Of a stretch of DNA of 64,000 nucleotides, positions 10,845-33,893 are shown one piece after another. This DNA comes from Christensenellaceae bacterium (lineage in GTDB: Bacteria > Bacillota > Clostridia > Christensenellales > Borkfalkiaceae). The stretch lies in assembly GCA_045536025.1 (NCBI GenBank), contig JAZSMT010000034.1, positions 2,085-66,084 on the forward strand. Direction: 5' to 3'. The position numbers were made by a program, and so were the translations under genes. The stretch's first letter is position 1. Each line of letters starts with the position of its first letter. The notes under the pieces were generated by a model. The model made no database searches and had not been told where the DNA came from. It saw only the letters and a list, made by a program, of their open reading frames with translations.

Positions 10845-11198
10845 TTATTTTTTCTGCTTTAATGTTTTACACGAAGAAATCAACATTTTCCGTATAGCGC
10901 CACAATCGTTATTCAGTTTTTTATATTGATTTTCTTCTAAATATCCTGTTTCAGATAGCAATTCTAACTAATATTCGCTTTCAAAGCATTCTTTTAACGC
11001 TATTTCAAGTTTTGAAATAAAGTCAGCCGTTCCTTGTGCATATTGAGCTTCGTGGATATTTGCACCAATACTTGTTCCGGAACGCAATAATTGATTAGTC
11101 AATACACTTTCTTTGTTATTAGATTTAATTTCTTTAGTTATGTAAACTATATTTTTAGCAAACTCTTTTGCTTTTTCTCTTAAGACACTTTCACTCAT
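10845..11198 (-). pseudogene. Four-helix-bundle protein (23S rRNA IVS protein / Avd family) interrupted by an in-frame TAG
   Basis: The 76-aa ORF stops at TAG (10968-10970), exactly where the intact paralog (26323-26673) has Trp in ...EYWLEL. The frame continues LELLSETGYLEENQYKKLNNDCGAIRKMLISSCKTLKQKK to TAA at 10845-10847. Confidence 0.8.
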
Positions 11199-11234
11199 AA
11201 GTTAATTATAAAATATTACAAATTTTAAGTAAAG

Positions 11235-11408
11235 TGATATTGTTTGCACAGCAAACAGTTATATTTTTAGACTTAATCTAAAAGTTATATTTTGGCTACA
11301 GCCAAAGTTATATTAAATAAATCCACAACTTACCGTAGGCAAATATCACTGCCGATAGGCAATATCACTCGTCGCTAGACGAATATCACAAATCCGCTTG
11401 CGGATTTA
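11235..11408 (-). repeat. Hairpin array, heptamer type (GTGATAT/GTTATAT block then ATATCAC block)
   Basis: Plus strand: 4 x GT(G/T)ATAT and 3 x ATATCAC. Each is followed by a different perfect hairpin (TGTTTGC/GCAAACA, TTTTAGA/TCTAAAA, TTTGGC/GCCAAA, TGCC/GGCA, TCGTC/GACGA, AAATCCGC/GCGGATTT). Confidence 0.8.
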
Positions 11409-11461
11409 TTTAGTTGCCGAACCCCTTGCAGGGACTCGGCTAAAGCGTGCTTTTAATTTTA

Positions 11462-17440: not shown

Positions 17441-17597
17441 CTTCTTTACCTCCGTTATTATTTTTACCTAATGAAAATCCGCTTTTTGCCGAGCATGGCA
17501 AAAAGCGGACGTAAAAAATATCTGCTTATTTATCCACAACCTCGGCAGGTGTAACGTAAACGTTACTTAAAAACCGGCTTTCTTCGGCTATTGATTG
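17441..17597 (-). promoter_or_regulatory. rplJ (L10) leader with terminator hairpin at 17474-17509
   Basis: Position between the promoter and rplJ. Minus-sense 13-bp hairpin UCCGCUUUUUGCC/GGCAAAAAGCGGA followed by UUUUC. Consistent with the attenuation-type L10 leader of Firmicutes. Confidence 0.6.
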
Positions 17598-17604
17598 TAC
17601 GGTA

Positions 17605-17633
17605 ATTTTAGCATACCGCACCTTATTTGTCAA
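17605..17633 (-). promoter_or_regulatory. sigma-A type promoter of rplJL
   Basis: Minus-sense TTGACA, 17 nt, TAAAAT. Confidence 0.65.
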
Positions 17634-20332: not shown

Positions 20333-21691
20333 ATGAAAGTTATAGTATCAGGCTGTGGAAAAATCGGCACGGCTATCGTTGAAAGCTTACTTAAGGAAAA
20401 GCACGATATCACCGTTATCGACGTAGACAGGTCGGTTATTGAATTTATAACCAACCGTTACGACGTTTTGGGATATCTAGGTAACGGTGCAAGTTACGAC
20501 GTTTTGCGTGAAGCAGGCGCGGACAAGTGCGACCTTTTTATCTCGGTTACGGCGTCTGACGAGTTTAATATGCTATCTTGTTTCGTAGCTAAAAAAGCAG
20601 GCACTAAATATACCGTTGCAAGAATAAGAAATTCCGAATATAACAATAAGAGTTTTGAATTCGTTAAAAACGAACTTGGATTAAACGTAATTATCAATCC
20701 CGAGCTTTTGACTGCTCAAACGATTTTTAACGTTTTAGAACTTCCCTCCGCCACTAGCATCGAGGCGTTTTCTTCAAGCGAGACGGAAATGGTTGAAATT
20801 ACCCTCAAAGAAACCTCTAACGCTTTGGGCACGCCACTTTACGAACTTAGAAAAAAATACAACTATAATTTTCTAGTTTGCTTAGTTCAGCGTGGCGAAG
20901 AGGTTTATATCCCCAACGGCTCGTTTGTTTTACAAGCTGGAGATAGACTTGGTGTTTTTGCTTCCAAGTTGGATATAAGCAAACTTTTTAAAGCTTTCGG
21001 GTTGGAGCACAAGCCCATAAAGTCGGTTATGATAGTAGGTGCAAGTAAAACGGCGCATTATCTTTCAAAACTTTTAGTGGACGCTAAAACGTCGGTAAAG
21101 CTCATTGAGATTAATAAAGATAAGTGTGAAGAGTTTGCAAAAAACATCGAACAAATAAGCGTAATAAACGGTGACGGCATGTCGCAAGACCTTCTTTTAG
21201 AAGAGGGAATAGGAGAGGTAGACGCTTTCGTTGCACTTACGGGAAAGGACGAGCAAAACGTTTTAATGTCCGTTTACTCTCAAAGCAAAGGCGTTAAAAA
21301 AACGCTTACGAAAATCAATCGCGACGAAATCGTCCATTTATCTAAGAGTTTGGGGATTGAAACGGTTATCACCTCTAAAAACTTAGTTGCTAACGTAATA
21401 GTTAGTTACGCGCGCGCACTTGAAAATTCTAAAGGAAGTCAAATAGAAACTCTTTATAGTTTGTTATCAGGCAAAGCCGAAGCTGCGGAGTTTAAAGTTT
21501 TATCCGATTTCAAACGCACTGGCATTCCCATAAAAGACCTAAAAATCAGTCAAAACGTTTTAATTGCAGGAATTATCCGCAACCGCGACATTATTATTCC
21601 CTGCGGTGAAGACGTAATTTTGGAAGGAGATAGGGTTATCGTTATAACGGCAGGTCGCTCGCTAGTAGGTCTTAGCGACGTAATAAGTTGA
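20333..21691 (+). CDS. trkA: Trk/Ktr potassium uptake protein, NAD-binding subunit (two RCK units)
   Basis: 452 aa; SGCGKIGTAI and VGASKTAHYL Rossmann starts. Confidence 0.85.
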   Translation: MKVIVSGCGKIGTAIVESLLKEKHDITVIDVDRSVIEFITNRYDVLGYLGNGASYDVLREAGADKCDLFISVTASDEFNMLSCFVAKKAGTKYTVARIRNSEYNNKSFEFVKNELGLNVIINPELLTAQTIFNVLELPSATSIEAFSSSETEMVEITLKETSNALGTPLYELRKKYNYNFLVCLVQRGEEVYIPNGSFVLQAGDRLGVFASKLDISKLFKAFGLEHKPIKSVMIVGASKTAHYLSKLLVDAKTSVKLIEINKDKCEEFAKNIEQISVINGDGMSQDLLLEEGIGEVDAFVALTGKDEQNVLMSVYSQSKGVKKTLTKINRDEIVHLSKSLGIETVITSKNLVANVIVSYARALENSKGSQIETLYSLLSGKAEAAEFKVLSDFKRTGIPIKDLKISQNVLIAGIIRNRDIIIPCGEDVILEGDRVIVITAGRSLVGLSDVIS

Positions 21692-21692
21692 T

Positions 21693-23138
21693 ATGAATAA
21701 AAGACTTATTTTCAGCACGGTATTAAAGGTTATAAAGGTGGAGGCAATATTAATGTTACTTCCCCTCGTTACTTCACTAATTTACGGTGAAAAAACGGCG
21801 TTTTATTCCTTTTTAATAACCTTGGTATCGGCGTATTTATTATCGTTTATATTAGAAAGGTTAATAAAACCTAGTTCGCAGGAATTTTATTCTAAAGACG
21901 GGTTTATAACCGTTGCGCTTACCTGGATTTTCGTGTCTTTGATAGGGTGCTTGCCCTTTTATATAAGTCGGGAAATCCCCTCGTTTATCGACGCTTTTTT
22001 TGAAACGGTTAGCGGTTTTACAACCACGGGTGCATCAATTCTTAAAGACGTTGAAGTTTTGAGCCACGGTATGCTTTTTTGGCGTAGCTTTACCCACTTT
22101 ATAGGCGGTATGGGCGTTTTGGTTTTCATTATGGCAATAACGTCTAAAACCACCGACCGCCCCATACACATTTTAAGGGCAGAAATGCCAGGGCCGATAG
22201 TTAGCAAGCTCGTTCCACGCTCTAAAGACACGGCTAAAATATTATACCTTATCTACGTTATAATGACGGTAGTTTGCGTAATATTTCTACTATTTGGCGG
22301 TATGCCGTTGTTTGAAAGTATCGTTCACGCACTTGGAACGGCAGGCACGGGCGGTTTTGGAGTTAAGAACGACAGTATTGCAGGATATAGCCCTTATATT
22401 CAATGGGTGCTTGCCATATTTATGCTACTTTTCGGCGTTAATTTTAACCTATATTATTTACTACTTTTGAAAAAAGTGGGCGCAGTACTTAAAAGCACCG
22501 AACTCAAAACTTATTTTATTATAGTTTTGATAGCGGTTGTTACTATAACTATTAATATATATTCGCTTTACGGCAACCTTTTCGGCGCACTTACCGCGTC
22601 GGTATTCCAAACGTCGTCAATAATTACTACTACGGGCTACTCTACCGCCGATTTTAACACTTGGCCAACACTATCTAAAATCGTTTTATTCACGCTTATG
22701 TTTATAGGCGGTTGTTCAGGCTCGACGGCAGGTGGTATCAAGGTTTCTAGAATAGTAATTTTATTCAAGAAAATCCGCCTCACTCTTAGAAAGCTTCTTC
22801 ACCCGAACGCCGTTTCAGTAGTTAAATTCGAGGGTGAAAAGATAGAAAAAAACCTTTCGGCGGAAATCGGCAATTATATATCCCTTTACTTTATTTGTTT
22901 CGTCGTAATAGCGCTGTTTATATCTCTTAATAACTTTGATTTCGAAACGACGATAAGCGCGGTTGCCACTTGTTTTAACAACGTAGGCCCAGCTTTCGGG
23001 CTCGTAGGACCTATGTCAAACTATGCAGATTTTAGCGGTTTTTCTAAGTTTGTTTTGTCTATTGCAATGCTTATGGGCAGACTTGAAATTTATCCCTTAC
23101 TGCTTGCGTTTATCCCGTCAACTTGGATTAAAAAATAA
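21693..23138 (+). CDS. trkH: Trk/Ktr potassium uptake membrane subunit
   Basis: 481 aa, polytopic, with repeated TTTG/GTGG selectivity-filter-like motifs. Confidence 0.85.
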   Translation: MNKRLIFSTVLKVIKVEAILMLLPLVTSLIYGEKTAFYSFLITLVSAYLLSFILERLIKPSSQEFYSKDGFITVALTWIFVSLIGCLPFYISREIPSFIDAFFETVSGFTTTGASILKDVEVLSHGMLFWRSFTHFIGGMGVLVFIMAITSKTTDRPIHILRAEMPGPIVSKLVPRSKDTAKILYLIYVIMTVVCVIFLLFGGMPLFESIVHALGTAGTGGFGVKNDSIAGYSPYIQWVLAIFMLLFGVNFNLYYLLLLKKVGAVLKSTELKTYFIIVLIAVVTITINIYSLYGNLFGALTASVFQTSSIITTTGYSTADFNTWPTLSKIVLFTLMFIGGCSGSTAGGIKVSRIVILFKKIRLTLRKLLHPNAVSVVKFEGEKIEKNLSAEIGNYISLYFICFVVIALFISLNNFDFETTISAVATCFNNVGPAFGLVGPMSNYADFSGFSKFVLSIAMLMGRLEIYPLLLAFIPSTWIKK

Positions 23139-23140
23139 CA

Positions 23141-23167
23141 AAAAGTGCACTGAAAAGTGCACTTTTT
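23141..23167 (+). terminator. Intrinsic terminator after trkH
   Basis: AAAAGTGCAC-TGAAAA-GTGCACTTTTT. Confidence 0.75.
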
Positions 23168-23267
23168 ATATTGTTACGATTAACGTTGAGCCCTCGCCCT
23201 TTTTACTATACTAAGCCCAAACCCTAATCCGTTTCTAGAGGTGGGGCTTTTTACTTGATAAAACTTA

Positions 23268-23378
23268 TCAAATTTTCTTAACGTTTTCTTCTGAAATACC
23301 TATACCCTCGGCTTTGAGTTTGATATCCATAAGTTTTCTTAAATTTTTATCGTCCTCTACGATTAATACGGTAAACAT
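23268..23378 (-). pseudogene. Remnant of a response-regulator receiver domain (36 codons)
   Basis: Minus-sense MFTVLIVEDDKNLRKLMDIKLKAEGIGISEENVKKI, preceded by GGAGGG. Only the first ~20 residues resemble a receiver domain. No kinase or output domain nearby. Confidence 0.45.
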
Positions 23379-23548
23379 ACTGCCCTCCGTTAATCATTTT
23401 AACATAAAAATACTAAACCTCATTTTTTTGTCGGTAATTTTTCAAAAATCACTTTAAATTATTAAAATATCTTGTTATTTCTTTTTGTTTACATACCGAT
23501 ATTTTTATGTTAAAATATATTAACTAACTTAAATTTTTGGAGAAATTT

Positions 23549-24313
23549 ATGTATCCTCACGAATTATTTTTAGGAATACACCTTTACGGCGTTATGATAT
23601 CCGTTGGTATTCTCGCCTGCTTTTTGGTGCTTTACTATATGGGTAAGAAAAAGGGTGTAAACCCTAACTTTTTAGACTTTGTGTTTTATAACGCGGTAGT
23701 TGCAATCGCTTTCGGCTTTTTAGCCGCCGCACTTTTTCAAGCTACTTATAACTATATTCAAAACCCCGAAGAGGGCTTTAACCTCGGTAGCGGTATAACG
23801 TTTATAGGCGGTTTAATAGGCGGTGTTGTAAGTTTCTTAGCAATTTACTTTATCTTTAGAAAAAAACTTTCAGGAAAACTTACGGATATTATTGCAATTG
23901 CACCAAGCTGTATTACGGTAGCTCACGCCTTCGGGCGCGTAGGCTGTGCGTTTGCAGGCTGTTGCTACGGTAAGGTAACCGATAGCCCTATCGCTATGTA
24001 TAACCACGGCGCTTGGCGTATTCCCGTTCAACTTTACGAGGCAGGCTTTTTGTTTATACTCTTTTTCGTGTTTACCTATCTCGTTTTGAGAAAAGACTTT
24101 AAATACACCTTGCCGTTGTATCTTTTCTTCTATGGAATATTTAGGTTTATTATCGAGTATTTTAGAGACGACGCAAGAGGTTCAATTGGAACTAGCGTAA
24201 TATCTCCGTCTCAACTTTGGTCGATAGTAATGGTAGTTGCAAGCGTTTTGGTTTTCTTGTTATTAAAATACGTTTTTGAGGGCAAAAAGGAGCCTATAAG
24301 TCGAAATGAATAA
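23549..24313 (+). CDS. lgt: Prolipoprotein diacylglyceryl transferase
   Basis: Start moved to the ATG at 23549 (GGAG upstream). Polytopic; contains HAFGRVGCAFAGCCYG and the FRFIIEYFRDD motif. Confidence 0.85.
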   Translation: MYPHELFLGIHLYGVMISVGILACFLVLYYMGKKKGVNPNFLDFVFYNAVVAIAFGFLAAALFQATYNYIQNPEEGFNLGSGITFIGGLIGGVVSFLAIYFIFRKKLSGKLTDIIAIAPSCITVAHAFGRVGCAFAGCCYGKVTDSPIAMYNHGAWRIPVQLYEAGFLFILFFVFTYLVLRKDFKYTLPLYLFFYGIFRFIIEYFRDDARGSIGTSVISPSQLWSIVMVVASVLVFLLLKYVFEGKKEPISRNE

Positions 24314-24896
24314 GTTTAAGACGATATTAAAACTATTTATAACGATGTTTAAAGTGGGGCTTTTCACCTTTGGCGGCGGATATGCAATGATAGCCGTTTT
24401 AGAACACGAATTCATTGAAAAGAACGGCTGGATTAAAAGGGAGGAGTTTTACGATATGCTTGCCGTTGCCGAGTCAACCCCAGGCCCTATCGCAATAAAC
24501 TCGGCAACGTTTATAGGCTACCGCTTAGCAGGGGTTTTAGGCTCGGTGTTTGCAACTATTGCAATGTGCTTACCCTCGCTTATAATCATCTATATAATAT
24601 CTTTGTTTTTTGATGCGTTTTTATCAATAACGCTAGTTGCTTACGCCTTTAAAGGTATTCAAGCGTGCGTGTGCTACTTAATACTTTCAGCTGGTATAAA
24701 AATGATTAAAAAACTTAAAAAGACGGCGCTTACCTTAACGCTTACCACCTTTACATTTATTGCGTATATTACGCTTACGTTGTTTGCGGTAAAATTCTCG
24801 TCAATTTTCTATATTTTGATAGGCGCGGGCATTTCGCTAACGGTATACCTTATAATCGTAGTTTCTAAAAAGCAAAAAGGGGGAGATAAGCAATGA
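24306..24896 (+). CDS. Chromate transporter family protein (half-size, first)
   Basis: FTFGGGYAMIAVLEHE...AESTPGPIAIN; CHR family signature. Confidence 0.8.
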   Translation: MNKFKTILKLFITMFKVGLFTFGGGYAMIAVLEHEFIEKNGWIKREEFYDMLAVAESTPGPIAINSATFIGYRLAGVLGSVFATIAMCLPSLIIIYIISLFFDAFLSITLVAYAFKGIQACVCYLILSAGIKMIKKLKKTALTLTLTTFTFIAYITLTLFAVKFSSIFYILIGAGISLTVYLIIVVSKKQKGGDKQ

Positions 24897-25465
24897 TTTT
24901 TCTCGACCTTTTTCTAACCTTTTTAAAAATAGGCGCGGTATCGTTCGGCGGTGGCTACGGTATGATTTCACTTATTAGTGAAGAGGTTGTTAACCACAAC
25001 TGGCTAACTGAAGGCGAGTTTATGAACTTTATTGCCGTTGCCGAATCAACACCAGGCCCTATCGCAGTTAATATGGCAACGTTAATAGGTAGCTCGCAAG
25101 CGGGGCTACTTGGTAGCTTGGTTGCAACGCTTGGCGTTGTGTTGCCGTCGTTTATTATAATTCTTTTAATCTCGGCAGTATTTTTCAACCTTTTAAAATA
25201 TGCTGGCGTAAAGTGGGCGCTTAAAGGCGTTAAAGCAGTTGTTGCAGGGCTTATAACCGCAACGGGCTTGACTATGGCTTTTTTTTGCATACTTGGCACT
25301 AAAACGATAAATACTCCTATCGCGTTTGACTATAAAGCGCTTATTATCTTTATAGCCGTTTGGCTTACTGCATTTTTATTTAGCAAATTTAAAAAGAAAA
25401 AATTATCGCCGATAATTTTAATAGTTATTTCTGCGGTAATGGGAATATTATTTTATGCTTTGTAA
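24893..25465 (+). CDS. Chromate transporter family protein (half-size, second)
   Basis: VSFGGGYGMISLISEE...AESTPGPIAVN; overlaps the stop of the first half. Confidence 0.8.
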   Translation: MIFLDLFLTFLKIGAVSFGGGYGMISLISEEVVNHNWLTEGEFMNFIAVAESTPGPIAVNMATLIGSSQAGLLGSLVATLGVVLPSFIIILLISAVFFNLLKYAGVKWALKGVKAVVAGLITATGLTMAFFCILGTKTINTPIAFDYKALIIFIAVWLTAFLFSKFKKKKLSPIILIVISAVMGILFYAL

Positions 25466-26207
25466 TTATCACACCCACACTAAAAGGTGCCACCACGCCG
25501 TTGGCGAGGATAGGGAATATATTGAAAACTCCATAAAAATCGGCATAAAGGTGCTTGGGTTTTCCGAGCATCCACCGTATATTTTTGACGACGGGTATAA
25601 TTCCTTTTATCGCATGGATTTTGACGATATTGACAATTATTGCAAGTCAGTTTTAGATTATAAAAGGGAATATAGTAGCGATATAGAAATTCATTTAGGC
25701 TTTGAGCTTGAATATTATAAAAGCATGCACGAGCGCGAAATGAGGTTTTTAAAATCTTTTAACCCCGAATATTTCATTTTAGGTCAGCATTATATCTACG
25801 AAGAAAAAAATAGCTGTTACGCTTATAATTTATCGAGTGAAACACTGTTTAAACAGTATATAAACGAGTGCATCGAGGCTATCAAAACGGGGGATTTTAT
25901 CTACCTTGCCCACCCCGACCTTCCAGGGCTTAAAGTTTCGCCCTCCGTTTATAATACGGAATATACGAGATTACTTGAAGTTGCAAAAAAGCACGATATG
26001 CCCATCGAGCTTAACTGCTACGGCATGATAAACAACCGCTGTTACCCCGATAGAAAGTTATTTGAACTCGCCGAAAAAATAGGCAATAAAGTGATTATCG
26101 GCATTGACGCGCATAATCCAACTAACGTATCTACTAAAACGTATGATAACGCCTTTAATCTAATAAAAGGCTTAAACCTTAACTTAATAGAAAAACTTGA
26201 GATATAA
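25455..26207 (+). CDS. PHP-family histidinol-phosphatase-like protein
   Basis: NYHTHTKRCHHA N-terminus typical of PHP HisK-type phosphatases; 250 aa. Confidence 0.6.
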   Translation: MLCNYHTHTKRCHHAVGEDREYIENSIKIGIKVLGFSEHPPYIFDDGYNSFYRMDFDDIDNYCKSVLDYKREYSSDIEIHLGFELEYYKSMHEREMRFLKSFNPEYFILGQHYIYEEKNSCYAYNLSSETLFKQYINECIEAIKTGDFIYLAHPDLPGLKVSPSVYNTEYTRLLEVAKKHDMPIELNCYGMINNRCYPDRKLFELAEKIGNKVIIGIDAHNPTNVSTKTYDNAFNLIKGLNLNLIEKLEI

Positions 26208-26236
26208 AAAAAGCATTTGCTCTAGCAAGTGCTTTT
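26206..26236 (+). terminator. Intrinsic terminator
   Basis: AAAGCATTTGC-TCTA-GCAAGTGCTTTTT (one G-U pair). Confidence 0.7.
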
Positions 26237-26254
26237 TAATTTCTATAAACTTAT

Positions 26255-26326
26255 ATTTAACCTTGCTAAGCAAGATTTCATCGCGTAGCGATTTCATCTA
26301 CGGCAGTAGATTTATTCCGCATTTAG
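26255..26326. repeat. 72-bp direct repeat, copy 1
   Basis: Identical to 26808-26879. Contains hairpins CTTGC/GCAAG, ATCGC/GCGAT, ATCTAC/GTAGAT and a half hairpin TCCGC. Also contains the TAA stop of the 4HB ORF. Confidence 0.95.
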
Positions 26327-26673
26327 TTTTGCATATTTTCCTTTGTTGTATTAATAGAAGAAATGAGCATTCTTCTAATTGAACCACAATCGTGTAAGAG
26401 TTTTTTTATGATATCATCAATAAAAATCTCTGACTTTTTTACAAGTTCAAGCCAATATTCTGTTTCATAACACTCTTTAAGCGCAATCTGCAATTTCGAA
26501 ACAAAATCCGCTTTGCTGTGAGCGTATTTTGCCTCTCTTATATTTGCTCCGATAGACGTTGCACTACGTTCTAATTGATTAACAAGAGAATAATGCCCCT
26601 TAATACCATCGGTCATCCTTAATATTTCGACTGCAAAGTCCATAGATAAATCTACAAGTTTGTTTTCTGCCAT
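26323..26673 (-). CDS. Four-helix-bundle protein (23S rRNA intervening-sequence protein / DGR Avd family)
   Basis: 116 aa. Motifs QLERSATSIGANIREAKYAHSKADFVSKLQIALKECYETEYWLEL are typical of this family (recalled, not searched). Confidence 0.75.
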   Translation of the reverse strand: MAENKLVDLSMDFAVEILRMTDGIKGHYSLVNQLERSATSIGANIREAKYAHSKADFVSKLQIALKECYETEYWLELVKKSEIFIDDIIKKLLHDCGSIRRMLISSINTTKENMQN

Positions 26674-26721
26674 AACAATCTCCTTTAATTATTTATAACA
26701 TAGAACCAAAGAAAAATCAAT

Positions 26722-26886
26722 AATGAAATCACCTATGGTGATGAAATCCAAACTTGTTTGGATGAAATCTTTAGCCTACGGCTTCAGATGAAATTAAATC
26801 CGCTAGCATTTAACCTTGCTAAGCAAGATTTCATCGCGTAGCGATTTCATCTACGGCAGTAGATTTATTCCGCATTTAGCGGATTT
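26722..26886 (-). repeat. Hairpin array, GATGAAATC / GATTTCATC type
   Basis: Plus strand: hairpins 26728-42, 26746-63 and 26767-89 joined by GAA; centre hairpin 26796-811; hairpins 26813-29, 26833-45 and 26849-64 joined by TTC; then 26869-83. All stems close with ATC...GAT and all variable parts are self-complementary. Confidence 0.85.
26808..26879. repeat. 72-bp direct repeat, copy 2
   Basis: Identical to 26255-26326. Confidence 0.95.
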
Positions 26887-26891
26887 AGTTG

Positions 26892-26924
26892 AAAAATGCT
26901 CAAGATTAAGTCTTGAGCATTTTT
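26892..26924. terminator. Bidirectional terminator downstream of tRNA-Leu
   Basis: AAAAATGCTCAAGA-TTAA-GTCTTGAGCATTTTT. Confidence 0.75.
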
Positions 26925-26925
26925 C

Positions 26926-27008
26926 TGGTGCGGATAACAGGAATCGAACCTGCACGGTTTCCCACAGGATTCTAAGTCCTGCGCGTCTGCCAGTTCCGCC
27001 ATATCCGC
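26926..27008 (-). tRNA. tRNA-Leu (anticodon UAG)
   Basis: Minus-sense GCGGATATGGCGGAACTGGCAGACGCGCAGGACTTAGAATCCTGTGGGAAACCGTGCAGGTTCGATTCCTGTTATCCGCACCA. Cloverleaf with a long variable arm, anticodon loop CUUAGAA, TPsiC GGTTCGATTCC and an encoded CCA. Confidence 0.9.
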
Positions 27009-27031
27009 GTATATTAAGGGGTACTAGCCCC

Positions 27032-27673
27032 TTATTTGTTCATAATTTCTACACCCGAGGACGTTCCTATTCTACTTGCGCCAATCTCAATAAACTTAAC
27101 GGCGTCTTGATAAGTTTTTATTCCGCCCGAGGCTTTAATAAGCGTTTTACCGCTTAAATTTTCCTTCATAATTTTAACGGCTTGCTCGGTTGCTACGCCA
27201 CCTGTAAAGCCCGTGCAAGTTTTAACGAAATCTGCGCCCGCCTCACAAACGATTTTTGTAGCCAAGGCAATTTCTTCGTCAGTTAAAAGCCCGCTTTCAA
27301 TTATTACTTTTACTACGTTGCCGTTTGCAACCTCGATAACTCTTTCGATTTCAGTTTTTACAAAATCAAAATCGCCCTCTTTAAGCTTTGCTACGTTTAT
27401 AACCATATCAAGCTCGGTAGCTCCGTCTTGAACTGCAAGCCTTGCCTCTTCTACCTTAATTTCGGTTTTGTTTTTGCCGAGTGGAAAGCCTATAACGGTG
27501 CATACTTTAACGTACGTATCGCCTAGCAATTTTTTGCAAAGAACTACGTCGCAAGGGTTGACGCAAACAGATTTAAAATTGTATTTAACCGCCTCATAGC
27601 ACAGTTTTTCAATATCTTTATCCGCGCAAAATGATTTAAGTGCGGTATGGTCTATGTATTTATTAATATTCAT
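27032..27673 (-). CDS. deoC: Deoxyribose-phosphate aldolase
   Basis: 213 aa containing IDHTALK...VCVNP...KASGGI. Confidence 0.88.
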   Translation of the reverse strand: MNINKYIDHTALKSFCADKDIEKLCYEAVKYNFKSVCVNPCDVVLCKKLLGDTYVKVCTVIGFPLGKNKTEIKVEEARLAVQDGATELDMVINVAKLKEGDFDFVKTEIERVIEVANGNVVKVIIESGLLTDEEIALATKIVCEAGADFVKTCTGFTGGVATEQAVKIMKENLSGKTLIKASGGIKTYQDAVKFIEIGASRIGTSSGVEIMNK

Positions 27674-27693
27674 TATTTACCTATTAATACACG

Positions 27694-29034
27694 TTACTTG
27701 CCTACACAAAACTTAGAAAAAATTTCGTCTATTATTTCTTCGGTTGCAGTTTTGCCGGTGATTTCACCAAGCGCGTCCCACACCGACTTTACGTCCTCTG
27801 AAACTATATCTAAAGGAACGTTATCTTCAATTCCGCAAATAGACGCGTCTATATAATCACGAGCCTTTTCAAGGGCTTTTAAATGCCTTTCTTCAGTGAT
27901 AAGCTCGGCGTTTCTATCAATGCCACCGTCAAACGCTTTTTGATACAAAAGGGTTTTAAGCTCTTCTAACCCTTCGCCCGTTTTTGCCGATATTGATACG
28001 CCGTTTTTACTATCAAAGCCAAGGTCTTTTTTATTGTAAACCTTTATATGGTTTAAACTTTCTACCTTATTATAAATTAATTTATCTTCTTCCGTCAAGG
28101 AATTTGCACCGTCAAACACCATAAGGCACACGTCCGCACTTTTAAGTATTTTTTCCGAGCGTTCAATGCCTAATTTCTCAATCTCGTCAGACGCGGTGCG
28201 AATACCAGCCGTATCAAACAAGTCAAACCTAACGCCGTTTATATCGATAGCGCCCTCAACGACGTCACGCGTCGTTCCCTCAATCGAGGAAACGATAGCC
28301 TTGTCGTAATTAAGTAATGCGTTAAGTAGCGAAGATTTGCCAGTGTTGGGCTTACCCACTATTGCCACCTTTACGCCGTTTTTGATTTTACTACCCTTGT
28401 CGTAACCGCTAATTAAAGCGTTTATCCTTGAATACGCGTACTCAAGCGTTGATTTAAGCGTGTCAAACGCTAACTCTTCTAAATCTTCTTCGGGATAATC
28501 TACGTCCGCCCCGATTTCAGCTAATGCGTAAGTTAACTTTGACTGAATTTCTTCAATCTCGGCAAAAAGCTTTTCGCGGTATAAGCCGTAACCTGCTTTA
28601 ACCGAGGCTACACTTTCGCCGTTTATCATATCGATTAAACCTTCCGCTGAAGAAAGCGAAAGCTTGCCGTTTAAAAAAGCACGCTTGGTAAACTCGCCCT
28701 TGGTTGCTGGAACAGCACCGTTTTTAAAGGTTGCCTTTAAAACGCCTTGCTGAATTTGAATACCGCCGTGCGAGTGAATTTCAAACATATCCTCGCCCGT
28801 GTAACTGTTAGGTGCTTTAAAGTAAACCGCCATACCAAAATCGGTAAACTCGCCACAGTCAATCTCGCCAACGTAAAGCTTATACGGCTCGAAATCTTTA
28901 ACCTTAACGCCCCTTTTAATAGGGCGGAACATTTTTTCTAATAGCTCAAGCGAGCCTTTACCACTAACGCGAATAATGGCAACGCCACCAACGCCGTTTG
29001 CCGTGCCTATTGCAGAAATAATTTCGTTATTCAT
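27694..29034 (-). CDS. mnmE: tRNA modification GTPase MnmE
   Basis: 446 aa; GKPNTGKSSLLN, DTAGIR and C-terminal FCVGK. Confidence 0.93.
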   Translation of the reverse strand: MNNEIISAIGTANGVGGVAIIRVSGKGSLELLEKMFRPIKRGVKVKDFEPYKLYVGEIDCGEFTDFGMAVYFKAPNSYTGEDMFEIHSHGGIQIQQGVLKATFKNGAVPATKGEFTKRAFLNGKLSLSSAEGLIDMINGESVASVKAGYGLYREKLFAEIEEIQSKLTYALAEIGADVDYPEEDLEELAFDTLKSTLEYAYSRINALISGYDKGSKIKNGVKVAIVGKPNTGKSSLLNALLNYDKAIVSSIEGTTRDVVEGAIDINGVRFDLFDTAGIRTASDEIEKLGIERSEKILKSADVCLMVFDGANSLTEEDKLIYNKVESLNHIKVYNKKDLGFDSKNGVSISAKTGEGLEELKTLLYQKAFDGGIDRNAELITEERHLKALEKARDYIDASICGIEDNVPLDIVSEDVKSVWDALGEITGKTATEEIIDEIFSKFCVGK

Positions 29035-29036
29035 AC

Positions 29037-29828
29037 TTAGTTAAAAAAATCGTCGCTCGAACTTGAAGAATCGTTGCTTTTATTTTCTTCGTCGCCAAAC
29101 TCAGGGAAGGGGTTTTCAACCGGCTTTTTATTTTGAGGTGGTTGCTGAGGATTATATCCACCGTAATATCCACCGCCGTAGTAACCGCCACCGTACGGAG
29201 TTTGCGGTCTTACTATAACGTGTTTGGGGTTGTTCCTGCATGTGAACAAAAGAATACCGAAAAGCGGTTCAATGAACACCGAAAGCAATGCGTAAAGTAT
29301 CGCCGATTGCGGACGGTAAAGCCTAAATACCAAAAATACAAGGCTAACGTTAAAGAAAATGTAGGCTAAATCAAATAAAGAACTACCATAATAAGTTATA
29401 AACCAAACGACGTTAGTGTTGTCAATCCACGTAAGTAAAAACTCGTTAGTTATTTGAAATTTTATAGGAAATATAAGCTCAACCAAGTTTATATAGTAGC
29501 CTAAATCGATAATAAAAGTAAAAAACGCACTTACAATGCCCGTTATGCACGCCCATACGCCCACGTTTTTAAGTTTTAATCCCCAAACGGTGGTTTTGCC
29601 AACCAACTTACCAAGCGGAATAAGATTGAAAAAAGGCACGAACGAAACCCAAAGCTTTTTATACCCTTGTTTTTTCGTCATCGTAAATATGGCAATTGAT
29701 AAAAACAAATGCCCTACAACCCAAACAACAATATCAAAAATTACCGAAAAAAGCACATATGTCGGGCTAGAAAGTATGCTATCTAGCATAGTTGTATAAT
29801 CTAAACTGCCTGAAAGTAAATTAAACAT
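29037..29828 (-). CDS. Polytopic membrane protein with Gly/Tyr-rich and acidic Ser-rich tail, function unknown
   Basis: 263 aa; several TM helices; tail YGGGYYGGGYYGGYNPQQPP...SSSSSDDFFN. Confidence 0.5.
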   Translation of the reverse strand: MFNLLSGSLDYTTMLDSILSSPTYVLFSVIFDIVVWVVGHLFLSIAIFTMTKKQGYKKLWVSFVPFFNLIPLGKLVGKTTVWGLKLKNVGVWACITGIVSAFFTFIIDLGYYINLVELIFPIKFQITNEFLLTWIDNTNVVWFITYYGSSLFDLAYIFFNVSLVFLVFRLYRPQSAILYALLSVFIEPLFGILLFTCRNNPKHVIVRPQTPYGGGYYGGGYYGGYNPQQPPQNKKPVENPFPEFGDEENKSNDSSSSSDDFFN

Positions 29829-29844
29829 TTTTAACTCCTATAAA

Positions 29845-31275
29845 TTAGTACGCCCTAGCAAAATAAACTATCTTTTCAGCTTTTTTACCGCAAACGGCGC
29901 AGGTCTTACCCTCGGCACTATCTTCGGCAATTACTCTTGCAGTAGCCTGAGTTTGTTCTTTAATTTTTTCTTCGCACTCACGGCAACCGCACCAAGGCGC
30001 TTTAACGAAATTCTTGCCCTCAACAGCAGAAAGAATACCTTCTAAATTTTCAGCGTAAACGATTTTTGAATCACGGCGCTCGCGCGATTTTTCAAGCATA
30101 TCTTTTTGAACCGTGCTTAAAAGACTTAAAACTGCCTCGCTATCAAAGAGTTTTAACTCTGATTTTTCAAGCGTATCACGGCGCATAGCCATCATCTTGC
30201 AGTTTTCGATATCTCTAGGACCAACTTCAATTCTTACGGGAACGCCTTTCATCTCCCACTCGTTAAACTTCCAACCGGGCGTAGCGTCGCGCTTATCAAC
30301 CTCGGCGCGAATACCTGCGCTTTCTAAAATATCGCAAAGTTTTTGCGCGTTTTCTAAAACGCCCTCTTTATGCATACAAACTGGGATAATAATTACTTGA
30401 ATAGGTGCAACTACGGGCGGAATTACCAAACCACGCTGATCGCCGTGCGCCATAATAAGCGCGCCTATTAAACGAGTTGATACGCCCCACGAGGTAGAAT
30501 ATCCGTATTTAAGCGCACCGTCTTTATCCAAAAATTTCATATCGAAAGCTTTAGCAAAGTTTTGACCTAAATAGTGGGAGGTGCCTGCTTGCAAGCTCTT
30601 ACCGTCAAGCATCATAGCCTCCATACCGTAGGTAGCAATTGCGCCTGCAAACTTTTCTTTATCCGTTTTTCTACCCGTTATTACCGGGATAGCCAAGCAG
30701 TTTTCAGCAAAGTCTTTATACACGCCGAGCATAGTTTGGGTTTCAATTTCAGCCTCTTCTTCCGATGCGTGAACGGTATGACCTTCTTGCCATAAAAACT
30801 CGCTCGTTCTTAAAAAGGGACGGGTAGTTTTTTCCCATCTCATAACGTTACACCATTGATTCATTAAAATAGGAAGGTCACGATAGCTTTCCATCCACTT
30901 AGCATACATATTGCAAATTATAGTTTCGCTGGTGGGGCGAATAACCAAATGCTCTTGAAGTTCTTGCCCACCTGCTTTGGTAACGACTGCAACTTCAGGC
31001 GCAAACCCCTCTACGTGCTCAGCCTCTTTTTTAAGATAACTTTCGGGAATTAAAAGCGGAAAGTATGCGTTTTTAACACCCTGTTTTTTAAAGCGTTTGT
31101 CAAGCTCTTTTTGAATATTTTCCCATATAGCGTAGCCGTAGGGGCGAATTACCATAGTGCCTTTAACGGGACCGTAATCAACGAGTTCGGTCTTTAAAAC
31201 AACGTCTGTATACCATCTGGGGAAATCTTCATTAATATCTGCAATTTCTTTTACGAATTTTTTATCGTTTGCCAT
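29845..31275 (-). CDS. proS: Prolyl-tRNA synthetase (archaeal/eukaryote-like short type)
   Basis: 476 aa; class II motifs; C-terminal zinc-binding CGC...C...CAVCG region. Confidence 0.9.
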   Translation of the reverse strand: MANDKKFVKEIADINEDFPRWYTDVVLKTELVDYGPVKGTMVIRPYGYAIWENIQKELDKRFKKQGVKNAYFPLLIPESYLKKEAEHVEGFAPEVAVVTKAGGQELQEHLVIRPTSETIICNMYAKWMESYRDLPILMNQWCNVMRWEKTTRPFLRTSEFLWQEGHTVHASEEEAEIETQTMLGVYKDFAENCLAIPVITGRKTDKEKFAGAIATYGMEAMMLDGKSLQAGTSHYLGQNFAKAFDMKFLDKDGALKYGYSTSWGVSTRLIGALIMAHGDQRGLVIPPVVAPIQVIIIPVCMHKEGVLENAQKLCDILESAGIRAEVDKRDATPGWKFNEWEMKGVPVRIEVGPRDIENCKMMAMRRDTLEKSELKLFDSEAVLSLLSTVQKDMLEKSRERRDSKIVYAENLEGILSAVEGKNFVKAPWCGCRECEEKIKEQTQATARVIAEDSAEGKTCAVCGKKAEKIVYFARAY

Positions 31276-31515
31276 AATCTCTCCTGAATAATCCTAATAA
31301 TTATATATTATTATATCTATATTTACCTAAAAAGTAAAGCGTTTTACAAAAAACCACTTGCCTCCCAAGAGGTTTTTACTAAAATATAATTTAATTTTCA
31401 CAAAATTTATAGTTATTTTATTATTTATGCTTTATTTAACTGAAAAAGTGTGCTAAAATAAGATAGTAAAATTACTCCGCACGAATTTAGCGGACTAATA
31501 AAAAGGAGAAATCTA

Positions 31516-33486
31516 ATGGAAAACAACAATTTAACCGTCAACACCATACGCCTTTTATCGGCAGACGCGATTGAAAAATCAAACTCCGGCCACCCCGGCA
31601 TTTGCCTCGGTGCTGCTCCTATTGCCTATTCTTTATGGCAAAACTTTTTAACTTTTAATCCGTCAAGCAGTAAAAAGTTCTATAACCGCGACAGATTTAT
31701 TTTGTCAGCAGGTCACGGCTCTATGCTCAACTATTCTTTACTTCACTTGTACGGCTACAAGCTTTCGATTGAGGATATTAAAAATTTCCGTCAATTCGGC
31801 TCGAAAACTCCCGGTCACCCCGAATACAATCACACCGACGGCGTTGAAGTTTCAACCGGCCCGTTAGGTCAAGGTATTGCAAACGCAGTTGGTATGGCTA
31901 TTGCTGAAACCCACCTTGCGTCCGTTTACAATAAAGAGGGCTTCCCCGTTGTAGACCACTACACCTACGCTCTTTGTGGCGACGGTTGCTTGATGGAAGG
32001 TATTGAATACGAGGCTGCTTCGCTTGCAGGCTCACTTAAGCTTGGCAAACTTATCGTTTTATACGATTGCAACTACATAACTATCGAGGGCGACACTTCG
32101 CTCACGTTCAGTGAAGACGTTAAAAAGCGCCACCAAGCACAAGGCTGGCAAATTATCGAGGTTAAGGACGGTAACGATTTAGTAGCCCTCAATAAAGCTA
32201 TTAAGAAAGCAAAGGCTGAAAAGGAAAAGCCCTCGCTTATCGTATGCTATACCAAAATCGGTTACGGCTCTTCAAAAGAGGGTTCTGCAAGTTCGCACGG
32301 CGCACCCTTGGGCGCTGAGGCTCTTGAAGGTCTTAGAAAAAATCTCGATTACCCCTACGCGCCTTTCGAGGTTGCTGACGAGGTTTACGCTCACACCAAA
32401 AAAGCTATCAACCGCGGTAAAAAGGCTGAACGCGCTTGGAAGAAGATGTTTGCTGAATATTCTAAGCAATATCCCGAACTTGCAAAAGAGTTTATCGACC
32501 GCATGAACGGTAACCTCCCCGAAATTGACTGGGAAGAGGTTTACAAATTTGAAAAGGACGATGCTACTCGTGGAACTAGCGGTACGGTTATTAACAAACT
32601 TGCACCTCAAGTATCTATGCTTTTCGGCGGTTCGGCTGACCTTAACCCGTCTACTAAATCACACATGAAAACGGCTGGCGAATACTCGCCCGAAAACCGC
32701 GCAGGTAGAAACCTCCACTTTGGTATAAGAGAGCACGCAATGAGCGCAATTTGTAACGGTCTTGCTTGCCACGGCGGTTTCTTACCCTACTGTTCTACCT
32801 TCTTCGTATTCAGCGATTATATGAAGAACGCAATGCGCTTATCCGCGCTTATGGACCTTAACGTAACTTACGTTTTAACGCACGACTCTATCGGCGTTGG
32901 TGAAGACGGTCCTACCCACCAACCTATCGAACACTTAACTGCTCTTCGCTCTATGCCCAACATGAAGGTATTTAGACCTTGCGACGGTAGAGAAACTGCT
33001 GCAGGTTACGAAGTTGCCCTCACTGGTAACGGCCCTGTAAGCTTAATTCTTTCACGCCAAACTTTAAAGGGCTATGAAGGAACGGGCAAAGCTGCTCTTA
33101 AGGGCGGTTATATCCTTGCTGATAGTGACAAGAAGGTTCCCGACGTAATACTCATCGCGTCAGGCTCTGAAGTTGAGTGCTGTATGAACGCTAAAGAGCT
33201 TTTAAAAGCAGAAGGCGTTGACGCAAGAGTAGTTTCTATGCCCTGTATGGAACTTTTTGAAGCACAATCTCAAAAGTATAAAGAAAGCGTTATTCCTTCT
33301 AGCGTACGCGCAAGAGTGTGCGTTGAAGCAGGCTCTTCTATGCCTTGGTATAAGTACGCCGGCTTAGACGGAAAGATTATCGGCGTTGACGAATACGGTA
33401 TATCCGGCCCTGCTAAACAACTCTTTAACCACTACGGCTTTACCGCTGAAAACGTAAAAGCAACTGCGCTTGAAATAGTTAAATAA
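31516..33486 (+). CDS. tkt: Transketolase
   Basis: 656 aa containing [13 protein letters not shown] and [16 protein letters not shown]. Confidence 0.95.
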
Positions 33487-33499
33487 TTCTAAACAAAAC

Positions 33500-33893
33500 A
33501 AAAACCCTTTGCCGTTAGCGTGATACTCTTAACGGAGTATCACGCAGTCAAATCCGTCTTCGCAGGGTAGCGAAGTGGCGCGAGCGCAATAAATGACAAC
33601 GCGGTGCGTTGTCAGAACGCGAGCGTGACCGAGCCGCAGCGAGACGGGAAATACGGATTTGTTTTCATCCAAGGCGCGTCCTTGGATTTCATCTGAACAA
33701 AGCGAAGATTTCATTAAACCAACAGAAAAAGAGAGAACATTTCGGCTATGAACCGATTTGTTCTCTCTTTCTGTCGTTATAAGGGTTTGGGCTTAGCCCA
33801 TAGAGTGTTTGACCAGTCAAATGCGATGCTCGCACTTAGCGGTATTTTCAAATTCTCCGCTAAGGACATCACCATTTCGGCAAAGGGTTTTTT
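33500..33893. repeat. Split bidirectional terminator stem enclosing a 363-nt hairpin-rich insert
   Basis: AAAAACCCTTTGCCG (33500-14) pairs with CGGCAAAGGGTTTTTT (33878-93). About nine hairpins lie between them, including ATTTCAT-linked units at 33662-33716. Confidence 0.75.

Follow-up and report, generated by a model that had tools for sequence, protein, structure and literature searches.

At 26208-26925 of the 64,000-nucleotide (nt) stretch of DNA analysed here, referred to as the window (Christensenellaceae bacterium, contig JAZSMT010000034.1, positions 2,085 to 66,084), a gene for a small four-helix-bundle protein lies within a compact, structured module that begins directly at the 3' end of a transfer RNA (tRNA) gene. 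Read along the minus strand, the module consists of an intrinsic terminator (T1), a block of tandem hairpins (A1), an inverted block (B), a promoter-like site with a ribosome-binding site, the gene, a further hairpin block (A2) and a second terminator (T2). Comparison with related DNA loci, which carry labels such as L001, L004 or L129, has revealed this conserved unit of about 0.6 kb as a discrete module in many contexts, and its sharp homology limits bear out the discreteness claimed in a preliminary description of the locus.

The tRNA-Leu gene (anticodon tag; 26926-27008, minus strand) was identified by ARAGORN and scores 60.1 bits with the Rfam tRNA model; its CCA end occupies 26926-26924. 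T1 (26891-26925, minus strand) is bidirectional and comprises an A-run, a 15-bp stem and a T-run, its 15-nt inverted repeat being 100% complementary in a repeat search of 26000-27100. The preliminary description had let the module start after the terminator of tRNA-Leu; instead, the terminator is itself the opening element of the module, which starts at 26923. The layout CCA|GAAAAA-stem-TTTTTCAAC is common to most loci, and near-identical terminators stand beside differing tRNAs. A1 (26796-26886, minus strand) scores 76.4 bits with R1, a covariance model built from 46 A blocks, and 39.9 bits (26803-26871) with the Gut-1 RNA motif of Rfam. It opens with hairpin h0 (26869-26883), which is followed by three hairpins with GAUGAAAUC linkers, and it can be closed as a whole by a 10-bp stem, AAATCCGCTA/TAGCGGATTT, which forms when the 5' arm of h0 pairs with a distal copy in place of its local partner. 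The three hairpins of block B (26721-26799, plus strand) score 31.8 bits with Gut-1 and 22 bits with R1, both on the plus strand, and their linkers read GAUGAAAUC on the plus strand and thus GAUUUCAUC on the gene strand. The hairpins closed by ATC...GAT, with GAA linkers at 26722-26795 and TTC linkers at 26813-26868, are present as first read. The earlier idea of two inverted blocks stands for the linkers, closing pairs and loop types, which are inverted, but the blocks are not mirror copies of each other. With up to one mismatch, GATGAAATC occurs 34 times in the window against 11.7 occurrences expected, and six of its seven exact copies lie in the module region. Segment 26674-26925 folds far better than shuffled sequences on both strands (z -6.6 and -6.5).

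Downstream of the arrays, the hexamers TTGATT (26720-26715) and TATAAA (26697-26692), separated by a 17-nt spacer, form a promoter-like site, and an AAGGAG ribosome-binding site follows at 26685-26680 (together 26680-26720, minus strand; both read from the sequence). The site is absent from the promoter-scan listing because the scan accepts a second hexamer only if its sixth position is T; similar sites, either TTGAYT/TATGCT or extended -10, are found at L016, L026, L047, L074 and L110. The gene itself, taken from the list of open reading frames (ORFs) and from profile matches, encodes 116 amino acids (26323-26673, minus strand). A2 (26247-26329, minus strand; 58.5 bits with R1 and, at 26250-26318, 40.2 bits with Gut-1) is a second, partial block that begins at the stop codon and has neither strand of the closing stem. 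It sits between the stop codon and T2 and is therefore part of the gene transcript, in its 3' untranslated region. T2 (26208-26237), found by inverted repeat and terminator scan, is bidirectional and is common to the module gene and a convergent PHP-domain gene (25455-26207, plus strand). A2 and A1 contain the two copies of a 72-bp direct repeat (26255-26326 and 26808-26879), which are, as initially reported, identical at 72 of 72 positions (100%); it is equally correct that the stop codon (26323-26325) lies inside the first copy.

The protein was originally assigned to the intervening sequence (IVS)-protein/Avd family, and the profile check agrees: the cut-offs of both PF05635 (E 7.2e-26; 90.9 bits, cut-off 33.8) and TIGR02436 (104.6 bits, cut-off 24) are exceeded. 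The protein also matches PDB entry 2RLD (E 1.3e-23), an uncharacterised structure deposited with five chains, and carries the GxxRxxxSxxxNxxE motif in the form ERSATSIGANIRE. The Avd equivalog model NF033474 is not matched by the window protein, and a paralogue encoded elsewhere in the window reaches 16.7 bits against a cut-off of 80. Between the window gene and its homologues, the ratio of nonsynonymous to synonymous substitution rates (dN/dS) is 0.04-0.13. At least 8000 relatives are present in the protein collection, the best 120 of them 83-100% identical, and at least 435 were confirmed in a metagenome scan. Phage and plasmid collections gave gene-level matches only (68-74% identity), and a scan of viral contigs gave two matches, both at contig ends. 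In the cultured relative Monoglobus pectinilyticus (NZ_OY725736.1, 80805-81272; L133), the space between hsdS and hsdR in a type I restriction-modification operon is occupied by an unannotated homologue; this context agrees with published cases in which family genes had inserted into cas operons and ribosomal RNA (rRNA) genes. Family member Xcc0516 is an assembly of five four-helix bundles; in the pentamer of Avd, the one relative that has been characterised, all five protomers touch an RNA stem-loop, and stem-loops are conserved beside avd genes (bioRxiv 10.1101/2023.10.23.563531).

The hairpin arrays of the window are diverged copies of the Gut-1 motif (RF01706). Rfam sets the gathering score for Gut-1 at 50 bits, and the window arrays (40.2, 39.9 and 31.8 bits, and 49.6 bits for one in a second module) all fall below it. 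Arrays in the same position reach the gathering score at 16 of 20 diverse loci (50.2-73.3 bits), further arrays in related modules, examined with the contigs that include transfer-messenger RNA (tmRNA), score 53.7-57.7 bits, and the B blocks of L083 and L105 exceed it on the antisense strand. Since the window copies remain under 50 bits while related arrays exceed it, they are best described as diverged homologues of Gut-1 and not as formal members. The hallmark of Gut-1 in the Rfam alignments, three tandem hairpins with covarying stems and UGAAAU-type linkers, is present. With R1, a single model unites all arrays, and an A block is found upstream of nearly every close homologue with enough upstream DNA, so that the arrays are a general companion of these family members, the opposite of what would have spoken against the preliminary description. 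Weinberg et al. (2010; PMC2864571) give neither a context nor a function for Gut-1; in its seed alignment (RF01706), the 3' end of a tRNA, a terminator and arrays in sense and then in antisense orientation can already be seen. The literature searched describes neither a partner block in inverted orientation, nor a stem closing the A block, nor a terminator built into the module, nor a start precisely where a tRNA or tmRNA gene ends, nor the link to a PF05635 gene; the motif and the protein family are each known, and it is their joint architecture that is undescribed there.

An exact 9-nt inverted repeat, the closing stem, brackets the A block in 60 of 74 unique upstream regions, and the length of the block almost always falls within 88-97 nt. 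Triple covariation links the 5' arm with a local and a distal partner (for example, CCGTCC/GGACGG/GGACGG and CCACCC/GGGTGG/GGGTGG). Because the closing stem was the extraction criterion, its covariation is true by construction, and the evidence for this stem is the 60 of 74. Compensatory changes are seen at 16 of the 24 predicted pairs, closing stem counted, and at most pairs of the three inner hairpins. The stems are about 97% Watson-Crick, with G-U making up about 1%; counts of G-U versus A-C pairs (2:0 in the A block, 11:4 in the B block) are too few for strand assignment. Among B loops, GAA, the complement of UUC, is enriched, as are sequences complementary to further loops common in A. 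The loop, linker and closing-pair types of B are the reverse complement of those of A, and B is therefore an inverted version of A. Such an inversion would suit either an element of DNA whose two strands are both read or a pair of RNAs transcribed toward each other. Stem sequences vary within and between arrays and the linkers alone are conserved. Between lineages with a synonymous divergence (dS) of 0.30, the A and B blocks differ by about 4-5%, making the arrays more conserved than synonymous sites. Both the protein and the hairpins are under selection.

The position next to tRNA-Leu is one instance of a wider association. Upstream DNA of 420 nt or more is available for 56 unique loci, and 41 of these have a tRNA on the same strand, of 13 isotypes in all, whose end mostly lies 196-281 nt ahead of the ATG; tRNA-Glu is a 14th isotype in the non-deduplicated list. 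The remaining 15 comprise four contigs cut inside tmRNA, one tRNA detected with Rfam, two abutting tRNA 3' fragments, one second gene of a tandem pair and seven loci without a recognisable tRNA. The contexts of three relatives place the gene directly downstream of tmRNA or tRNA, and there Gut-1 is found above its gathering score downstream of tmRNA in the sense direction, with a weaker antisense match before the gene at each of these loci. At most junctions, the A-run of the terminator follows CCA either directly or after one base. L129 has two tRNA-Gly genes of identical sequence whose downstream DNA differs from the first base past CCA onward; the one without a module continues into its own terminator, and the other into "GAAAAA-stem-TTTTTCAACTAAATCC". 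A somewhat different arrangement is seen at L060 (about 2050-2300), L103 (about 360-590) and L126 (1-75), where an intact tRNA or unrelated sequence is separated by a short insert from a duplicated tRNA 3' fragment directly adjoining the module; here, insertions of other elements into the same tRNA genes seem to have displaced the module. At loci without a tRNA, the module terminator is immediately preceded by a conserved element in which a unit of about 26 nt (GGTRYACTTTT...CTCTTTCACA) is repeated two or three times in tandem (L074, 3440-3470; L082, 1482-1510; L106, 820-850; L093, about 1570-1630), and it may be the 3' end of a preceding cassette.

Pairwise homology between copies ends at about -270, the start of the terminator, and at +227 to +340 of the 351-nt gene; what follows the gene is unrelated from locus to locus. 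The modules of L059, next to tRNA-Tyr, and L106, with no tRNA, are 95.8% identical over 499 nt, and L074 and L082 have the module plus a GNAT gene in common (1246 nt, 92%) while adjoining different tRNA sequences. Of 81 unique contexts, 49 show an ORF of 70 or more amino acids whose start lies -12 to +45 nt from the stop codon, often with an ATGA overlap; a small number of them seem spurious. Sampled downstream proteins include GNAT, NUDIX, MazG, nucleotidyltransferase, AAA_18 and DUF1349 proteins and others without a family match. Modules also occur in series. Positions 1-3500 of L083 contain tRNA-Trp, then array, gene and cargo twice, and then a third array before a 157-codon ORF that is not of the family; its two units differ in their linker variant (GTGAAATA and GATGAAATC). 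An extra A block follows the gene in L100 and L125 and the cargo gene in L077, L082 and L093. At L095 (1-260), two A blocks stand head to head around one common bidirectional terminator with no tRNA between them, which looks like two modules back to back. At L115 (about 2100-2500) and L125 (about 2050-2500), a single gene is preceded by two tandem copies of the complete A plus B array.

The 72-bp repeat had been taken to suggest integration or recombination at an attachment (att)-like site, or else slipped duplication within an array; att-type integration is not supported. The repeat contains no tRNA sequence, there is no integrase nearby and the duplication is old. An arrangement of A block, gene and A block with the repeat is also present in L001 and L126, whose two copies differ at 0-3 positions (3 of 72 in L126). 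The L126 protein is 95% identical to that of the window at a dS of 0.30, and the same two sites, derived relative to both window copies, are present in each L126 copy. Because the duplication is found in so distant a lineage, with derived sites in both copies, it reflects concerted evolution rather than a fresh att duplication. The left edge of the 72-bp repeat coincides with AACTAAAT, a microhomology of 8 nt that the end of the gene shares with the beginning of the array. The two A copies of L100 are nearly identical, and the repeat edges of L100 and L125 differ from those of the window. Downstream repeats are rare, since two or more sense linkers are found in just 4 of 81 unique downstream contexts. 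Neither feature that marks islands targeting tRNA genes was found: no integrase among the ten neighbouring genes, no tRNA 3' end in the 72-bp repeat. One genome scan with the PHP-domain protein returned other species only, at no more than 68% identity; in these, the orthologous interval from the PHP-domain gene to tRNA-Leu holds membrane, XRE and other small genes, with no clean empty site. At L004 (7800-7870), the terminator of tRNA-Leu is followed by a single hairpin flanked by GAAGAAATC (GAAATC) and then by a GC-rich hairpin resembling the one at 11415-11445 of the window; these may be a decayed array.

Gut-1-type arrays are not confined to this one spot of the window and are also found at 11240-11430 and 33550-33720, and the search for further copies that had been proposed thus yielded a second module and a gene-less remnant. 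The second module (10845-11445, minus strand), downstream of a protein-coding gene rather than a tRNA, has an A block at 11315-11411 with GUGAUAU linkers (49.6 bits with Gut-1, 57.7 bits with R1), a B block at about 11240-11314, a promoter-like site and a TIGR02436 paralogue (10845-11198). This paralogue is probably a pseudogene, because it has an in-frame TAG at a Trp codon conserved in relatives; with Trp restored, it scores 113.4 bits with TIGR02436. The remnant (33550-33720, plus strand; 19.4 bits with R1) consists of a GC-rich segment bounded by a stem (AAATCCGT...ACGGATTT) and two B-type hairpins with TTC linkers, and BLAST matches it to A/B junctions of other loci. A 21-nt sequence in it, GTCTCGCTGCGGCTCGGTCAC (33625-33645), recurs in inverted orientation at L016-L025 and L041, about 160 nt past the family genes linked to tmRNA; a broader homology of 33540-33660 to the post-gene region of L016 was considered and reduced to this 21-nt exact match. 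The ten genes around the module (20333-33486) encode TrkA, TrkH, Lgt, ChrA, the PHP-domain protein, DeoC, MnmE, a protein without a family match, prolyl-tRNA synthetase (ProRS) and transketolase. A ribosomal protein L10 leader is matched at 17464-17605 (minus strand) with 39.1 bits, under its gathering score of 44, and a scan of the whole window against Rfam gave nothing else relevant.

A sharply bounded module that recurs after many tRNA and tmRNA genes suggests a cassette that spreads without an integrase. We favour, with a little less than even confidence, the reading that window segment 26208-26925 is one copy of a multi-copy cassette of uncultured gut Clostridia, portable and probably mobile, with the double array as its cis element. 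The conserved unit comprises terminator, A block, inverted B block, promoter and ribosome-binding site, the TIGR02436/PF05635 gene and often a variable accessory gene with overlapping stop and start codons, and it starts at the first base beyond the tRNA or tmRNA 3' end. In this model, the double array would mark the limits of the cassette and mediate the recombination or insertion that places it beside unrelated tRNA-like genes, and the same events would yield the tandem arrays and the forms with an A block on either side of the gene, such as that with the 72-bp repeat. The spread across loci would then reflect active mobility and the arrays would be the sites used. By analogy with the stem-loop contact of Avd, the encoded protein may bind the arrays, the array being the most plausible ligand of an Avd-family pentamer.

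A more specific form of this model, in which the cassette homes without an integrase to any tRNA-like 3' end by its shape, the Gut-1 double array acting as the cis element and the pentamer as the binding subunit, is improbable. Because tmRNA shares only its tRNA-like 3' domain with tRNAs, targeting, if real, would read shape or the gene end and not sequence. Conceivably, a reverse transcriptase acting in trans would join module RNA to tRNA 3' ends, and recombination into the tRNA gene would follow; the Neurospora mitochondrial retroplasmid reportedly uses a mechanism of this kind. A route through mature tRNA 3' ends is nevertheless doubtful, because the junctions of L056 and L123 have no CCA and the neighbours include no reverse transcriptase.

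Several results weigh against a mobile cassette. No enzyme able to move it is found among the ten neighbours, which are housekeeping genes, and PADLOC gave no match. A pair of occupied and empty sites within one species was not recovered, the exact PHP-domain and DeoC proteins of the window having matched no record. The comparison data are mostly metagenome contigs, many out of few samples, and the array is not found at the Monoglobus homologue, so that family members elsewhere can be array-free. The repeat boundaries vary by locus, which argues against a precise site-specific crossover. The window protein has an isoelectric point (pI) of 6.3 (homologue median 6.4) and is thus not basic, unlike Avd, which weakens the proposed binding to the arrays. 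Finally, the strand-specific U-G closing pair in 13-15 of 46 A blocks, and UUC as by far the commonest A loop (70 cases), fit a role as RNA without mobility.

These last features lead to another model, which is rather unlikely, in which the module is a non-mobile ribonucleoprotein or regulatory unit whose pentamer binds units of hairpin plus GAAAU, much as TRAP and CsrA bind repeated motifs, and controls its own or a coupled downstream gene. The arrays would then be Gut-1 RNAs: A1 would be transcribed by read-through from the highly expressed tRNA, A2 as the 3' untranslated region and B from a divergent promoter, and the position at tRNAs would reflect hitch-hiking on stable-RNA transcription, as with rRNA IVSs. 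The contact of all five Avd protomers with a stem-loop is in keeping with this model, as are the U-G closing pairs and UUC loops on the sense strand of A with mirror features on the other strand of B, the conservation of arrays beyond that of synonymous sites and the necessary transcription of A2 between stop codon and terminator. Furthermore, L060, L080 and L081 have no promoter between B and the ribosome-binding site, and a weak plus-strand promoter-like site (26695-26724) is directed into B. However, A1 lies behind a strong terminator, G-U pairs are infrequent within stems (about 1%), the protein is not basic but acidic to neutral, and the sharp homology limits, the at least 14 tRNA isotypes and the arrays before unrelated genes would be left unexplained.

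If instead the arrays were repeats like the repetitive extragenic palindromes (REP) and bacterial interspersed mosaic elements (BIME), that is, self-proliferating terminators, insulators or mRNA stabilisers with the gene as a mere frequent neighbour, then arrays without the gene would be expected, and there are such arrays at 33550-33720, in the third cassette of L083 and in L077, L082 and L093. The bidirectional terminator always accompanies the arrays, and inverted pairs are also seen in BIMEs. Yet the stems are not conserved within or between arrays as those of REP are, the homology blocks cover array and gene jointly and the A block precedes nearly all close homologues for which enough upstream DNA is available, while about 110 kb of related Clostridia sampled irrespective of the gene (L003-L013) gave one weak match. 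This explanation therefore has little probability. The smallest share goes to the model of the preliminary description, an IVS-like element integrated site-specifically at an att-like site next to tRNA-Leu and perhaps excised from RNA by RNase III, which we consider very improbable. A perfect direct repeat does bracket B plus the gene, tRNA flanks are classic integration sites, and tRNA 3' fragments are duplicated near the modules of L060, L103 and L126. These duplications, however, are explained by other insertions into the same tRNAs, and at least 14 isotypes go beyond a single att specificity; most homologous modules have no downstream repeat, and the 72-bp repeat of the window holds no tRNA sequence, has no integrase nearby and is old, with its copies evolving in concert.

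Gut-1 has been an orphan RNA motif since 2009-2010 and now gains a genomic context and a tie to PF05635/TIGR02436 proteins. The role of these proteins has been open since IVSs were described in 1993, and their association with stable RNA is widened from rRNA to tRNA and tmRNA. If any tRNA-like end is indeed targeted without an integrase, a new insertion mechanism would be at hand; if the cassette homes by shape, the IVS-protein family would acquire a function and a new class of mobile element would be defined. In practical terms, repeats of 0.6 kb may add to the breaks in gut metagenome assemblies beside tRNA genes.

Among known systems, the IVSs of 23S and 16S rRNA in Leptospira, Coxiella and bacteria of the candidate phyla radiation (CPR), reportedly described by Ralph and McClelland in 1993, likewise carry a single PF05635-family gene in an insert of about 0.5-0.7 kb, with structured flanks and an association with a stable-RNA gene. 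The IVS likeness seen in the preliminary description is thus upheld for size and protein family, but not for location or ends, since no part of the window matches rRNA and a long terminal stem was not found. The module, flanked by tRNA-Leu and the PHP-domain gene, differs in lying outside rRNA, after a tRNA or tmRNA 3' end, behind a terminator and usually with its own promoter. Its A-B complementarity is limited to the 9-nt linkers, with no long stem joining the module ends in the 26000-27100 repeat search. No long terminal stem that could take the place of an rRNA helix was seen, and RNase III excision is not implied.

With Avd, the module shares a homologous four-helix-bundle protein and a gene beside structured RNA, and the five chains of 2RLD and the five bundles of Xcc0516 parallel the Avd pentamer. 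It differs in that the Avd equivalog model is unmatched, in the pI of 6.3 versus that of a strongly basic Avd, and in having 4 plus 3 short hairpins instead of one stem-loop of 9-11 bp. No reverse transcriptase is found among the ten neighbours, in agreement with the preliminary description, and the local repeat search, which covered 26000-27100 only, gave no pair resembling template and variable repeats.

Integron cassettes with attC sites and the recombinase-associated cassette arrays of gut Bacteroidales combine small variable genes with structured, imperfect palindromes. The module resembles them in its variable accessory genes (here GNAT, NUDIX, MazG and nucleotidyltransferase) between elements conserved in fold and variable in sequence, and in its tandem cassettes (L083). 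Unlike an integron cassette, it has its own terminator, usually its own promoter and no R''/R' core sites, and it is anchored at a tRNA or tmRNA end and not at attI. An attC site (RYYYAAC ... GTTRRRY) was considered and rejected, as the 'TTTCAAC' of the left edge is a partial match without an inverted partner at the right edge; no IntI or other recombinase is found in the neighbourhood, a statement that does not extend to the whole genome, where no search for IntI was made. Two other candidates were set aside: a type III toxin-antitoxin system of the ToxIN kind (tandem identical RNA repeats upstream of a gene for a ToxN/AbiQ-fold nuclease), because the units are not identical repeats and the protein belongs to PF05635, and a CRISPR-like array, on its defining features.

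REP and BIME elements, which are linked to RAYT transposases, are intergenic hairpins with conserved stems. Like them, the arrays are multicopy intergenic hairpins in direct and inverted orientation close to terminators; in contrast to REP, whose stems are conserved in sequence, the module conserves its linkers only. The last comparison is with Gut-1 itself. The window copies of the A type, at 39.9-49.6 bits, differ in scoring below its gathering score of 50, but both consist of three or four short hairpins whose stems vary and covary, both have conserved (G/A)UGAAAU or GUGAUAU linkers and both are known from gut metagenomes only.

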